A stretch of DNA of 7,604 bases, from the NCBI GenBank assembly GCA_037147375.1, contig JBAWVI010000045.1, positions 1-7,604 of the forward strand, read 5' to 3'. This document shows positions 958 to 6,470 of the stretch, piece after piece (position 1 is the first letter of the stretch; each line of letters begins with the position of its first letter). This DNA comes from an archaeon (lineage in GTDB: Archaea > Iainarchaeota > Iainarchaeia > Iainarchaeales > CSSED10-239). Both the position numbers and the translations under genes were made by a program. Below the pieces are notes generated by a model. It was not told the origin of the DNA, searched no databases, and worked only from the letters and a program-made list of their open reading frames with translations.

Positions 958-2127
958 TCATTTGTATTTATTTAATATTATTTCTAAATATTTTATGAAT
1001 TCTTTTGTGTCTAAAAAATAATTAGGATATGCCTTTTTTAGGTCTTGTATATTGTCTGCACTAACCAAAACCACATCATATTCCTTTCGATTATAAATCT
1101 TTTTTTCTGCTTTAGAATATGCTATAAGTGCTTCTTTTTCTTGTTTTTTATTAAATGCAGTAATGTTTAATCTTTCCAGTATTGTGTCTAATTCTAAAAG
1201 ATAAAAGTACATATTTTTTTTATTTTTAAAATTATCAAAAGATTTTATTGATTCAGTCCAATGTTTCATTTTTTTAATAACTTGTAATTCTTGTTCTTTT
1301 TGTTTTATTTGTAAATAAAGTTCTTTTTCATTTTCCGGAGTCCCTGATATAATAGGTGTATTTTCTAATTTAGCAAATGCAGAACTTACTAATTTAAAGA
1401 AGATTTTCCAATTTTCTTCACCTTGATTAGATTTAATAGCCTGCCTTGTGAAAAAATCAACTGTTTCAACAGCAGTTGCCCAAAGATGTTGTAGTTTTGA
1501 TCTTATTTGAACCTCAACTAACAAGTCATTATATTTATCTTTACCTTTATCACTTTTATACTTATATATTATATGTATACTTCTATATCCGTCTTGCTTT
1601 GGGTATAAAATATAATTTTTTTCATTTACTTTTTTGTGTTTTAAATCCCCATTTAAATAATACTTTTTATATAGTTCTGTTGCTAATTTAATATTTGACA
1701 TTACTACCCTACATCCTGCGATATCTTGCATTTGGGTTAATTTCATTGTTGGTTTGTTATTATTATATCTTCTTTTTAGTTTTTTGAGTATTGATGAAAC
1801 TCTCTTTAATCTTTGAGCAGATAATGCGTTTTTATCTATTTTTTCTGAAACTCTTTTCAATCTTTTCTTAAATACATTTAATGGATAATTGTGTGCTCCT
1901 TTCCAGTTACTTACTTGTTCTAAAGCATTATTTATTTCTTCTTCTGAATGGTGTTTGTCATCACAAAGAATTATAGCTGAATTATTTATTTTTGATTTTG
2001 AAAGGTTTATAATATCTAATTGTTTCATAACCATATATTCTATCATAATTCTTTTAAATATATCTAATTGCGCAGTATTTATTAAAAACAAGTATCTAAT
2101 TGCGCGGAATGTAATTATGTGATCCAT
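958..2127 (-). CDS. RelA/SpoT-domain nucleotide pyrophosphokinase (small alarmone synthetase / toxSAS-like) with an uncharacterised ~150-aa C-terminal domain
   Basis: RSH synthetase motifs are intact in order: a basic ATP-binding patch (SAQRLKRVSSILKKLKR), DIAGCRVV, GYRSIHIIY and VEVQIRSKLQHLWATAVE. The N-terminal segment (LSKSKINN...NWKGAHNYPL) resembles stand-alone RelA/SpoT-domain proteins. The start is uncertain. Alternative ATGs lie at 2046, 2034 and 2028 (M28, M32, M34), and the first 27 codons overlap DNA repeats that sit in different reading frames. Confidence 0.85.
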   Translation of the reverse strand: MDHIITFRAIRYLFLINTAQLDIFKRIMIEYMVMKQLDIINLSKSKINNSAIILCDDKHHSEEEINNALEQVSNWKGAHNYPLNVFKKRLKRVSEKIDKNALSAQRLKRVSSILKKLKRRYNNNKPTMKLTQMQDIAGCRVVMSNIKLATELYKKYYLNGDLKHKKVNEKNYILYPKQDGYRSIHIIYKYKSDKGKDKYNDLLVEVQIRSKLQHLWATAVETVDFFTRQAIKSNQGEENWKIFFKLVSSAFAKLENTPIISGTPENEKELYLQIKQKEQELQVIKKMKHWTESIKSFDNFKNKKNMYFYLLELDTILERLNITAFNKKQEKEALIAYSKAEKKIYNRKEYDVVLVSADNIQDLKKAYPNYFLDTKEFIKYLEIILNKYK

Positions 2128-2216
2128 TTTCGGTAAGTACCTATATATATTGGCTTTTTCACGGATTGTTTTTTAAATGTCGTTCGTAAAATAAGAGTAA
2201 GTAGCAAATTGCGCGG
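2013..2216 (-). promoter_or_regulatory. array of repeated TATCTAATTG(CGC) / AATTGCGCGG motifs across the 5' end and upstream region of the RelA/SpoT gene (candidate operator sites)
   Basis: There is a perfect 13-mer TATCTAATTGCGC at 2061-2073 and 2093-2105, 32 nt apart. The 10-mer TATCTAATTG recurs at 2013-2022. AATTGCGCGG occurs at 2098-2107 and 2207-2216, with a degenerate AATTTGCG near 2238-2245. GCGC-containing words are otherwise rare in this AT-rich DNA. Confidence 0.4.
2141..2153 (-). promoter_or_regulatory. TATA-box-like element upstream of the RelA/SpoT gene
   Basis: The minus strand reads GAAAAAGCCAATATATATAGG, a purine-rich BRE-like run followed by TATA. It ends about 14 nt from the ATG at 2127. 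With typical archaeal spacing the TSS would fall at or just inside that ATG. This implies either a leaderless mRNA or use of a downstream ATG. Confidence 0.3.
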
Positions 2217-2356: not shown

Positions 2357-2956
2357 ATGATTATTATGAATGAATGGGAAAAAGCATATACAAATGGTTT
2401 TCTAGTAAATACTAATAAACCTAGTGAGGTTATTCTCTTAGCTCAAGATTTATTACCTAAGTCCGGTAAGGTTCTTGATATTGGGTGTGGAAATGGAAGA
2501 AACACAATCTACTTTGCAAATAAAGGTTACTTTGTAGATGCAATAGATATTGTTGATCTTGATTTTTTAAAAGAAATTCCAAAAGAGCTACTGCCTTTAG
2601 TAAATTACAAAAAAACATCTTGTCTTGATTATTCTTTTGATTCTAGATATGATATTATTGTTATGGCTAGATTAATTCAATACTTAACTGTAGATGAACT
2701 TGATTTACTTTTTAAAAAAGCTATATCTTCTCTTAAAAAAGAAGGATATATCTTATTATCTTATTCAGCAACAGGAAAAGCAATTTCTGAAAAGTATGGA
2801 GTAAACAAGTACAATCACCCCCTATCTCTTGTTTTAGATTTAGTAGAAAAACATAATCTTAAGGTAATAACTCTTAAAGAAGGAAACAAGGTTGGTATCC
2901 ATCTTTCCTATAAAGAAGATGCAATAACTTATGATATTGTTCTTCAATTACTTTAA
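2357..2956 (+). CDS. class I SAM-dependent methyltransferase, TehB-like
   Basis: Motif I and its surroundings (KVLDIGCGNGRNTIYFANKGYFVDAIDI) closely resemble TehB-type methyltransferases (LDLGCGNGRNSLYLA..G..V.A.D). DIIVMARLIQYL and KKEGYILL fit later Rossmann-fold motifs. No SD is present. The adjacent repeat unit supplies a TTTTAACTAATAAG TATA-like element about 30 nt upstream, so the mRNA may be leaderless. Confidence 0.8.
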   Translation: MIIMNEWEKAYTNGFLVNTNKPSEVILLAQDLLPKSGKVLDIGCGNGRNTIYFANKGYFVDAIDIVDLDFLKEIPKELLPLVNYKKTSCLDYSFDSRYDIIVMARLIQYLTVDELDLLFKKAISSLKKEGYILLSYSATGKAISEKYGVNKYNHPLSLVLDLVEKHNLKVITLKEGNKVGIHLSYKEDAITYDIVLQLL

Positions 2957-4059: not shown

Positions 4060-4074
4060 ATTCTGTGATTAGTT

Positions 4075-4263
4075 ATGGAATGTAAGAAAGAAGTTAATCT
4101 AAGATCTTGTCCTTGTACATATTCTTGTATAAGGAAAGGGATTTGTTGTGAATGTATTAAATACCACCGCAAGAACAAAGAGCTTCCAGCTTGTTACTTC
4201 TCAAAGGAACAAGAAAGAACTTATGATAGAAGCATAGAAAATTATCTTAAAACTAGAAAATAA
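4075..4263 (+). CDS. Cys-rich small protein (62 aa), DUF6485-like
   Basis: Eight Cys residues in the pattern C..(8)..CPCTYSCIRKGICCECIKYHR...LPACYF, which I recall from the small Cys-rich cytosolic-protein family of anaerobes. The family name is from memory and unverified. GTGAT lies 5 nt before the ATG, and the gene starts 15 nt after the cyclophilin stop. Confidence 0.65.
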   Translation: MECKKEVNLRSCPCTYSCIRKGICCECIKYHRKNKELPACYFSKEQERTYDRSIENYLKTRK

Positions 4264-4270
4264 AAAAAAT

Positions 4271-4895: not shown

Positions 4896-5690
4896 TTATT
4901 TTATTCTTTTAACTACAAGATATTCTCTTGGTAGGTTTTCTCCAATTAATATAACATTCATGCCTGGATTATTTTCTTTTTTAAAATTATGATACTTTGC
5001 TTCAAATCCCATTTTACTTAGTTTTTTTGTAAATGCATCTGCATATTCTTTTTTATGCTCAGAAAAAAATCCAAAGAAACCATAACCTCCTTTTTCAAGA
5101 GAATAAAGATGTTTTAATAGAATTTCTCTTTGCAAGTGTGGAGTTGAATGTGCAAAACCACCGAATACAGAAAATATAAAATCAAATTTTTCTTTAGGAA
5201 CGTATTTACTTACGTCTCCAACATAAACCTTGTCAATTTTTGCGCGTTTTAAATCCTTTTTATTTAATACAATTGCTGTAGTTTCAAGTTTAGGGTTTTT
5301 TGGATCCATTTTTCTAAATGTTTCCCACATTTCTTTTAAATCAGTTAAGAAAACCCCTCTTCCAGCACCATCATCTAGTACCTTCATAACTTTCTTTTTG
5401 TTTTTAATTGAATATTCTACCATTACTTGTAAAATTTCTTTATTTTCTAATCCATCTCCAAGCTTAAGATACTTAATCATATTATTATATTCTGGATATC
5501 CTCTATTCCTAGAATAAAGACGATTATCATTTTCCCCAATAAGCCATTCAGAGTAAACACAATTCTCAATTCTTGATTTTTTATGCATCTCAATAGTTGA
5601 GTCTTTAAGTTTTTTTTCAATTATTTTTTGTTGAACCTTTTCCATTCCAAACTTTTTTGGTTTTGGTCTTGGATTTAATATTCTTCCCAT
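4896..5690 (-). CDS. class I SAM-dependent methyltransferase of unknown specificity, with a basic ~95-aa N-terminal extension
   Basis: Motif I is VLDDGAGRGVF, with later Rossmann motifs FDFIFSVFGG and LEKGGYGFFGF. The N-terminus is basic (MGRILNPRPKPKKFG). GTGAT lies 8 nt before the ATG and overlaps the nop5 stop. The gene is wedged between nop5 (9-nt gap) and fibrillarin (1-13-nt gap). Confidence 0.75.
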   Translation of the reverse strand: MGRILNPRPKPKKFGMEKVQQKIIEKKLKDSTIEMHKKSRIENCVYSEWLIGENDNRLYSRNRGYPEYNNMIKYLKLGDGLENKEILQVMVEYSIKNKKKVMKVLDDGAGRGVFLTDLKEMWETFRKMDPKNPKLETTAIVLNKKDLKRAKIDKVYVGDVSKYVPKEKFDFIFSVFGGFAHSTPHLQREILLKHLYSLEKGGYGFFGFFSEHKKEYADAFTKKLSKMGFEAKYHNFKKENNPGMNVILIGENLPREYLVVKRIK

Positions 5691-5699
5691 AACTATTCA

Positions 5700-6470
5700 T
5701 CACTTCGTGTGCTTTATCTTATAATTTATTTTTTCAAGAAGTTCTTTTGATATATCTTTTCCACCAAGATCAGACTTAATCCCAATTGCAATCTTTGATG
5801 CAATTATTCTTGCAATCTTTCCTTTCTGTTTAGCTGGAAGGGAAATGATTAATGGATGATTAAAAAGAATTCCATACTTTGGAGTATTCTTGTTTTGTGC
5901 AAGTGCTTTAAAAAATGATTTTTCAGATCCAAGAAGTTGAATAGTTGATGCAGGAAATCTTGAAAGTCTTGCAATTCCACCAGAAATAATAAGCATCTTT
6001 GTTGCAATTGCGCTGCTTGCAACTTTTGTAAATGTAGGATAAGTTTCAATTAATAACTTTTCAATTTCTTTTGCAAGTACTTCTTTAATTTCAATTAAGT
6101 TAAGTATGTTGCTTGAAAGAGATTTAGTTAACTTCTTTTCCTTCTCAGAAAACTTAATTCCAACCTCTGAATCAATAATTGTAGTTATTTGTTTAATTCT
6201 TTTCTTATCAAGTCCAACCTTTTCAAGTGTTTTTTCATTTACTTCTTCAAGATTATAAACTAAACAATATTCTTTAATAGAAAGAATAGAATCAAGCATA
6301 GGATACTCTAAATCTGTAATAATTCTTAATGCTTCAAACAATTCATTTAAATTATTTGGAACCTTTTCAGAAAGTAAAGATAAAGCAATTATTCTTTGAT
6401 CAGGAGAAGTTAATTCCTTTCTAATTCCTTCTTTTGCGATCTTTAGCATCTCATTTTTATTAATTTTCAT
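5700..6470 (-). CDS. nop5: Nop5 (Nop56/58) C/D box sRNP core protein, short form (256 aa)
   Basis: The C-terminal Nop domain is clear: ATKMLIISGGIARLSRFPASTIQLLGSEKSFFKALAQNKNTPKYGILFNHPLI...KGKIARIIASKIAIGIKSD (compare the canonical AG.L..LA..PAST.Q.LGAEKALF...PKHG.I......RGK.AR.LA.K.A.A.R.D). The protein is about 140-150 aa shorter than typical ~400-aa archaeal Nop5. Confidence 0.85.
   Translation of the reverse strand: MKINKNEMLKIAKEGIRKELTSPDQRIIALSLLSEKVPNNLNELFEALRIITDLEYPMLDSILSIKEYCLVYNLEEVNEKTLEKVGLDKKRIKQITTIIDSEVGIKFSEKEKKLTKSLSSNILNLIEIKEVLAKEIEKLLIETYPTFTKVASSAIATKMLIISGGIARLSRFPASTIQLLGSEKSFFKALAQNKNTPKYGILFNHPLIISLPAKQKGKIARIIASKIAIGIKSDLGGKDISKELLEKINYKIKHTK

Follow-up and report, generated by a model that had tools for sequence, protein, structure and literature searches.

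A fused CapRel-family toxSAS gene in a DPANN archaeon and its clade across archaea and bacteria

The small alarmone synthetases (SAS) RelQ and RelP make (p)ppGpp and are non-toxic, and the CapRel proteins of the toxSAS group are often prophage-borne. CapRelSJ46 of Salmonella phage SJ46 is autoinhibited by its C-terminal domain: the YXXY motif (Y352, Y355) inserts between arginines, and A77, V338, L339, A341 and A351 form the interface (Zhang et al., PMC9712102). Surveys of RelA/SpoT homologues (RSH) place CapRel only in bacteria and their phages (PMC3153485, PMC7229694, PMC9712102). RelA/SpoT genes have also been reported in 19–69% of the genomes of four DPANN phyla, with 69% for Diapherotrites and 42% for Woesearchaeota, and were read as ppGpp enzymes acquired from Bacteria (PMC8407392). 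The gene considered here lies on the minus strand at positions 958–2028 of a 7,604-nt stretch of DNA (the window; contig JBAWVI010000045.1, assembly GCA_037147375.1) from Iainarchaeota archaeon CSSED10-239. Judged by its sequence, it is a fused CapRel-family toxSAS, as a first-pass annotation of the window had suggested.

That annotation had also taken RSH enzymes to be largely absent from Archaea, which is outdated for DPANN (PMC8407392), and had thought an archaeal module of this kind undescribed. The second claim stands in part: DPANN genes have been published as RelA/SpoT, and PADLOC already models such proteins as PDC-S33, but a literature search for archaeal CapRel or toxSAS returned only the DPANN RelA/SpoT report and no description of an archaeal CapRel. 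The accessible portions of recent archaeal defensome surveys mention neither CapRel nor PDC-S33, and in public databases the genes of the clade described below are named 'RelA/SpoT domain-containing protein'. New here are the reassignment of a DPANN 'RelA/SpoT' gene to fused CapRel, a cross-domain clade with a portable promoter element, and the swapping of the gene with a PDC-S01 cassette.

CapRel identity and proposed mechanism

A phmmer search of all Protein Data Bank (PDB) sequences returned CapRelSJ46 (7ZTB, 9ERV) with an E value of 3e-42 and 148 bits, query residues 41–382 aligning with chain residues 14–367 through both domains, whereas RelQ/RelP reached at most 44 bits (E ~1e-10) in the catalytic core only. 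Because the match to CapRelSJ46 is full-length and that to RelQ/RelP is weak and confined to the core, the protein is assigned to CapRel and does not group with the housekeeping SAS. By tblastn, the phage SJ46 gene is 32% identical across 95% of the query. The PADLOC hidden Markov model (HMM) PDC-S33 matches with E 4.4e-112 and 373 bits over profile positions 6–343 of 349, whereas the RelQ-type equivalog model GTPPhKinYjbM of NCBIfam scores 58.1 bits against a cut-off of 320, which places the protein outside this housekeeping SAS model. FaRel2 matches the family profile marginally (E 0.0031 across ~100 residues). In a neighbour-joining tree, computed without bootstrap, the clade is monophyletic within 99 CapRel-like representatives.

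The fold points the same way. An AlphaFold2 model made from 71 clade sequences has a predicted local distance difference test (pLDDT) score of 85 and a predicted TM score (pTM) of 0.83, with strands at residues 262–265, 273–281, 286–293 and 317–323 and a helix at 294–311 in the C-terminal region. Foldseek ranks 7ZTB and 9ERV at the top (E ~1e-20, best 1.6e-20; TM 0.65–0.68; ~360 aligned columns), whereas RelQ/RelP align across only ~195 columns, with a TM to target of 0.6–0.77. By both sequence and Foldseek, the C-terminal region is thus homologous to the CapRel pseudo-zinc-finger domain, the comparison that the first-pass annotation had proposed. The root-mean-square deviation between the model and 7ZTB/9ERV is large (~10 Å), which would fit an inter-domain arrangement unlike the open crystal form.

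The residues that matter for autoinhibition are largely retained. A77, R79, R116, Y155, V338, L339, A351, Y352 and Y355 of CapRelSJ46 are identical in the window protein, where the equivalents are R73, R107 and Y148; A71, V320, L321 and A333; and Y334 and Y337. At the position of A341 the window protein has S323; of the six interface residues, five are kept. The equivalents of R79, R116 and Y155 are invariant among 100 family representatives, in which the YXXY motif is at least 90% conserved; the motif is invariant in 71 clade members.

The open reading frame (ORF) runs from 2127 to 958 on the minus strand (389 aa), and all of it had been taken as the gene. The frame is indeed open, but its N-terminal 33 codons (2029–2127) are very probably non-coding. 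The true start is almost certainly the ATG at 2028, which gives a coding sequence (CDS) at 958–2028 and a protein of 356 aa, since homologues are 353–357 aa long, the closest relative (locus L080, protein 95% identical) has an in-frame stop within the upstream extension, and a conserved TATA-like box lies ~30 nt upstream. The intact synthetase motifs noted at first pass (SAQRLKRVSSILKKLKR, DIAGCRVV, GYRSIH and EVQIRSKLQHLWA) were located in the frame at 958–2127, and RelA_SpoT is its sole Pfam domain (E 7.7e-18, residues 105–218 of the 389-aa ORF). Pfam finds no HD hydrolase, TGS or ACT domain in this ORF, which thus does not have the long RSH architecture. The C-terminal extension is Cys-free and Lys/Glu-rich, as had been described, with 26 Lys, 15 Glu and no Cys in the last 151 residues. 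The features of the gene are as follows.

958–2028, minus strand: CDS of the fused CapRel-like toxSAS, 356 aa, stop codon at 958–960; placed by homologue lengths, the stop in L080, the TATA-like box and the full-length CapRelSJ46 alignment.
2029–2127, minus strand: 5' extension of the ORF, open but probably non-coding, inside the promoter/operator region; it contains the L080 stop position, two GCGCAA sites and the TATA-like box.
1324–1911, minus strand: toxSYNTH (RelA/SpoT synthetase) domain, residues ~40–235; the Pfam match covers 1474–1815.
1810–1812, 1708–1710 and 1585–1587, minus strand: codons of the ATP-coordinating R73 and R107 and of the G-loop Y148, which map onto R79, R116 and Y155 of CapRelSJ46.
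961–1323, minus strand: C-terminal antitoxin/sensor region without Cys, made up of anchor helices, a pseudo-zinc-finger-like domain (~1060–1248) and a C-terminal helix; aligns with 7ZTB residues ~230–367.
1018–1029, minus strand: YXXY autoinhibition motif, Y334-P-N-Y337, identical to Y352-P-N-Y355 of CapRelSJ46.

By analogy with CapRelSJ46 we hypothesize, at a probability of roughly 0.65, that the protein is an autoinhibited tRNA pyrophosphokinase that is released by a trigger protein, arrests translation and brings about abortive infection. At rest, the C-terminal pseudo-zinc-finger-like domain would be folded back on the N-terminal toxSYNTH domain, with the YXXY motif (Y334/Y337) between R73 and R107 and the ATP site blocked. 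A trigger protein would then bind the C-terminal domain and keep the enzyme open, and the open enzyme would transfer pyrophosphate from ATP onto the 3' CCA ends of tRNAs, so that aminoacylation and translation would halt and infection by a virus or other invader would be aborted. The CCA end of tRNA is universal, and the same protein could therefore work in archaea and bacteria. We infer the tRNA substrate, the toxicity and the nature of the trigger, like the autoregulation considered below, from these analogies.

The same catalytic domain might instead belong to a regulated SAS whose product, (p)ppGpp or (pp)pApp, would be a stress signal or a metabolic toxin. The RelA_SpoT domain is intact, database names include 'ppGpp synthetase' and 'GTP pyrophosphokinase', DPANN RelA/SpoT genes were so read in PMC8407392, and other toxSAS with an extra C-terminal domain, such as GRel/Pag1B, make alarmones. 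We nevertheless consider an alarmone product improbable: the similarity to RelQ/RelP is far weaker than that to CapRel and limited to the core, no conserved hydrolase partner lies nearby in 53 loci with clade members, and CapRel, PhRel, PhRel2 and FaRel2, where characterised, modify tRNA (PMC9712102 among others).

Clade distribution and promoter element

A search of GTDB representative genomes places the gene in a compact group of ~50 loci that are 57–81% identical; the clade as a whole covers 57–86% identity. The archaeal members are labelled Woesearchaeota, Pacearchaeota, Nanoarchaeota, Iainarchaeum, Aenigmatarchaeota and Nanohaloarchaea, and a few members are labelled Patescibacteria, Dojkabacteria or 'Gammaproteobacteria'. 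A member that is 70% identical (loci L083/L084, 6001–7065) lies between genes for trigger factor, TsaD and TsaE and those for RuvC and YebC, on a 0.95-Mb contig labelled Gammaproteobacteria; this bacterial context shows that the clade is also present in small-genome bacteria. Outside the clade, identity drops to 47% or less, and these next relatives are for the most part bacterial. In a library clustered at 50% identity, 1321 CapRel-like clusters reach E <= 1e-30, the best match among them being only 54% identical.

The CapRel-like protein is 70–72% identical to its homologues in Aenigmatarchaeota and Nanohaloarchaea, whereas the window's Nop5 is ~50% identical to that of an Iainarchaeum-type genome and only ~33% identical to that of Aenigmarchaeota. 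Since the CapRel-like protein is so much more conserved than the housekeeping Nop5, these identities indicate that the gene moved between DPANN phyla and between domains after the lineages had diverged, which bears out the horizontal acquisition proposed at first pass. The synonymous divergence (dS) between the window gene and other clade members is 0.8–1.5, except for L080 (0.11), and the spread is therefore not a recent sweep. DNA similarity of the window to other loci is limited to ~957–2114, so that the moving unit is the gene together with its upstream region. In viral contigs the clade is represented by one doubtful match (56%), the other 100 viral matches being distant (at most 43% identical). 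This sole 'viral' clade-like homologue (L097, 4535–5572; IMG/VR GVMAG-S-1041346-124) sits in a giant-virus metagenome-assembled genome bin and may be mis-binned DNA of DPANN archaea or of bacteria of the candidate phyla radiation (CPR).

The region upstream of the start carries a TATA-like box and repeated GCGCAA sites.

2052–2058, minus strand: TATA-like box TTTAAAA, ~30 nt upstream of the ATG at 2028; almost every archaeal locus of the clade has TTTAAA(T/A)A or TTTATATA at this position.
2060–2075, minus strand: promoter-proximal GCGCAA site CTGCGCAATTAGATAT, at -47; 38 sites fall between -50 and -41 in ~50 loci.
2092–2107, minus strand: second GCGCAA site CCGCGCAATTAGATAC, at -79, spaced 32 nt from the promoter-proximal one.
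2201–2216, minus strand: upstream GCGCAA site CCGCGCAATTTGCTAC, at -188, in a second, upstream module.

The position of the TATA-like box implies that the mRNA is probably leaderless or has a very short leader. In the 260 nt that precede the start, all 47 clade loci with enough upstream sequence carry A-C-C/T-GCGCA-A-w-w-y-R-A-C-A two to four times on the strand of the gene. The copy at ~-47 directly adjoins the TATA box, and the others are spaced at 31–33, 53–55, 84–86, 93–99 or 107–109 nt, which appear close to whole helical turns. Within the 230 nt upstream of the gene, GCGCAA has a density of 11.4 per kb, compared with 0.09 per kb per strand elsewhere in these loci, an enrichment of ~120-fold. 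Upstream of 26 other CapRel-like genes, that of SJ46 among them, the element is essentially lacking. The bacterial members of the clade keep the element: in one of them (L025), the 3' half of the element also serves as a -35-like TTGATA, with TAAAAT 17 nt further on. The array looks like a set of operator or activator sites. Since the CapRel-like protein alone always travels with the element, autoregulation through the GCGCAA sites would be the simplest idea. A palindrome, AAATAGCTATTT, was considered as a general upstream element and rejected, being confined to one subclade (at ~-73) and barely exceeding shuffled sequences overall.

A repeat-bounded slot and the neighbouring genes

Copies of a repeat bound the gene on both sides.

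859–918, no strand assigned: two tandem copies of a 28–32-nt repeat (859–886 and 891–918), downstream of the gene; 0 matches expected by chance.
2303–2342, no strand assigned: third copy of the repeat (2303–2330) and a partial copy, upstream of the gene; 0 matches expected by chance; exactly from here on, locus L088 is again similar to the window.

The junction of the tandem copies forms a terminator-like hairpin (882–898). In L088, a related locus whose Nop5 is 87% identical, similarity to the window extends over 522–906 (95%) up to the repeat and is found again from 2301 on. Between these points L088 has, in place of CapRel, a gene for a 420-aa AAA_14/DUF4143 ATPase that matches PADLOC PDC-S01 (E 5.9e-104), and the same 32-nt repeat bounds its slot at 15055–15085 and 16520–16560. 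CapRel occupies the slot in the window, L080 and L095, and the PDC-S01 ATPase occupies it in L088, L096 and L094; the more distant relative L090 has neither. In a metagenome scan, the repeat was found only at this locus in related strains, and four of five contigs stop no more than ~150 nt away from it, a pattern that differences between strains at this point would produce. The repeat is absent from the other loci, and the idea of a genome-wide element was rejected. The alternation of two defence candidates in one slot is the best contextual support for a defence role. Support of this kind is indirect; it also includes another clade member that adjoins RhuM, near AbiEii and SLFN/AlbA_2 genes, and the match to PDC-S33. 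As candidates for structured RNA the repeat regions were set aside: three of four folds were no better than shuffles, the plus strand of 845–960 reached z = -2.3, and the terminator-like hairpin at the repeat junctions was the sole structural signal.

A cassette bounded by repeats, holding a gene that moves horizontally with its own promoter, could also be a selfish addiction module that stabilises a mobile element by post-segregational killing, an option that the first-pass annotation had left standing. It is very unlikely here: toxin and antitoxin form one polypeptide and thus lack the differential stability that addiction needs, and the cassette contains no gene for an integrase, for replication or for transfer, nor is any such gene conserved in its vicinity.

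The gene has no conserved partner. When 544 ORFs from the 53 loci were clustered, no family, and hence no conserved neighbour or separate antitoxin, occurred in more than four loci. The earlier statement that the flanks have no ATG-initiated ORF longer than five codons holds for 2128–2302 but not for 923–957, where the minus strand has an 11-codon ORF starting at 953 and the plus strand has an ATG at 928 whose frame stays open for 10 or more codons, as far as the interval extends; neither looks credible as an antitoxin, and the conclusion that there is no separate antitoxin stands. No tRNA or known RNA family was found in the window.

The neighbours in the window are Nop5, fibrillarin and ribosomal protein L35Ae, all three as annotated at first pass, together with cyclophilin and a TehB-like methyltransferase. 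As the CapRel-like family is mostly bacterial, an assembly artefact or bacterial contamination had to be weighed, and it is exceedingly improbable. G+C is uniform along the window (~0.25–0.31), and the promoter is of archaeal type. L080 and L095, from other samples, carry the same junctions: L080 has the order Nop5, 264-aa ORF, fibrillarin, cyclophilin and CapRel, and L095 has a gene for a 66-aa membrane protein followed by the CapRel 3' end. The agreement of these independent assemblies at the junctions shows that the archaeal context is genuine and that the contig is not chimeric.

The neighbourhood varies at further points. The TehB-like S-adenosylmethionine-dependent methyltransferase gene (CDS 2357–2956, plus strand) is present in the window and L088 and absent from L080 and L090; its region (2341–2963) is edged by a short direct repeat, TTAAAGT(A/T)A, and its match to PADLOC 'mad2' is a generic methyltransferase-domain match (E 1e-13). 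A Na/Ca-exchanger gene between fibrillarin and cyclophilin in L088 (12399–13328) and L089 is not in the window (compare 4060–4270) and represents a further indel in the same neighbourhood as the slot. Between cyclophilin and fibrillarin the window encodes a Cys-rich DUF6485 protein of 62 aa (4075–4263, plus strand), also found in L088; L089 and L090 either lack it or have another small ORF there. The window's conserved 264-aa ORF and the neighbouring nop5 occupy 4896–5690 and 5700–6470, both on the minus strand. Nop5 is 256 aa long and lacks the N-terminal domain PF21572 of the 335–358-aa Aenigmarchaeota homologues. The 264-aa ORF, located between nop5 and fibrillarin in the window, L080, L088 and L090, has weak class-I methyltransferase matches; a relationship to Nop5 was rejected, as BLASTP against long Nop5 found no similarity.

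Sensor conservation and comparison with described systems

The ratio of nonsynonymous to synonymous divergence (dN/dS) is ~0.1 along the whole protein, from which we conclude that the gene is functional. Within the clade, the mean pairwise identity is 0.68 in the pseudo-zinc-finger domain and 0.78 in the core, as compared with 0.25 and 0.47 in the rest of the family. By dN/dS there is no sign of diversifying selection on the sensor. The estimated ratio of sensor to core rates is modestly lower in the clade (~1.5) than in the rest of the family (at least 1.8), and because the difference is only modest, we do not claim a qualitative change in how the sensor evolves.

Several observations weigh against an antiviral, CapRelSJ46-like role. 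The sensors of enterobacterial CapRels are the least conserved part of the protein and are thought to be in an arms race (PMC9712102), and this variability, characteristic of the studied CapRels, is not seen here, where the sensor domain is conserved (dN/dS 0.10–0.27); such conservation fits a conserved, possibly non-viral, trigger. Most neighbours in the window are housekeeping genes, and the clade is nearly absent from viral contigs. The RelA/SpoT prevalence per DPANN phylum (PMC8407392) is, moreover, high for a defence gene.

These points raise the possibility that the same enzyme, with the same autoinhibition, is not primarily antiviral and would serve as a growth-arrest or dormancy switch of DPANN/CPR episymbionts, sensing a conserved endogenous or host-derived protein and autoregulated through GCGCAA. 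A sensor under strong purifying selection, nearly as conserved as the core, would suit such a switch, as would the occurrence of one clade across DPANN phyla and CPR or other small-genome bacteria, the high reported prevalence, and a gene-specific, helically phased cis-element kept in archaeal and bacterial promoters. There is also a precedent for a host factor, as CapRelEbc is described as sensing T7 Gp0.4 complexed with FtsZ (PMC13423816). We still regard a dormancy switch as unlikely. The presence of the gene varies among close relatives, it is swapped with PDC-S01 in the same slot as befits an accessory, defence-like gene, synteny is not kept across genomes, and every fused CapRel so far characterised is an antiphage sensor. 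Equally tentative is a broader proposal, in which the DPANN/CPR clade would be a distinct CapRel offshoot: a cross-domain, autoregulated translation-arrest switch with one conserved trigger (endogenous, host-derived or from a pan-DPANN/CPR virus), the same protein binding the GCGCAA operator, and thus a regulator of the episymbiont lifestyle, not an arms-race sensor.

Should the mechanism proposed from homology be correct, a fused toxin-antitoxin would pyrophosphorylate tRNA CCA ends in Archaea as well as in Bacteria. DPANN RelA/SpoT genes would then be translation-arresting toxSAS and not evidence of an archaeal stringent response or of (p)ppGpp signalling, which would correct the published inference. 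The clade further offers a clean case of a single defence-type gene with its own portable promoter common to ultra-small archaea and bacteria. Because its sensor domain is conserved, looking for the trigger is a tractable task, and one trigger could serve hundreds of homologues.

Among described systems, CapRelSJ46 shares with the window protein its length class, the two domains in one polypeptide and a Cys-free C-terminal domain. In contrast, the window gene is located in a DPANN archaeon and not on a prophage, with an archaeal TATA promoter and a probably leaderless mRNA, its sensor domain is conserved within the clade instead of hypervariable, and the GCGCAA element upstream of it is absent at the SJ46 locus. 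Of the trigger-contact residues L280 and L307 of CapRelSJ46 neither is kept, one falling in a gap and the other being Arg. The label PDC-S33 denotes a computational candidate that, on the present evidence, corresponds to fused CapRel-like proteins; the literature search found no paper that names it. The toxSYNTH domain is also homologous to that of PhRel (mycobacteriophage Phrann Gp29, with the antitoxin Gp30) and of the actinobacterial CapRel:ATcapRel pair, the antitoxins of both being homologues of the C-terminal domain in fused CapRel. However, these two systems are bicistronic, whereas toxin and antitoxin are fused in the window protein.

The housekeeping enzymes RelQ and RelP (YjbM, YwaC) have the RelA_SpoT catalytic fold in common with the window protein, but they are ~210–230 aa long and lack a C-terminal antitoxin domain, so that the window protein has an extra domain of ~120 aa. 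FaRel2 (PDB 8PU1–8PU4) is presumed to use the same chemistry, tRNA CCA pyrophosphorylation, but its antitoxin is separate and unrelated. GRel/Pag1B of the PANGU system resembles the window protein in having a toxSYNTH domain followed by an extra C-terminal regulatory domain and in its defence role. Pag1B differs in that it requires a NAP partner, makes pppGpp and lacks the tRNA-binding basic pocket, and its C-terminal domain, an acidic DNA mimic, is no internal antitoxin.

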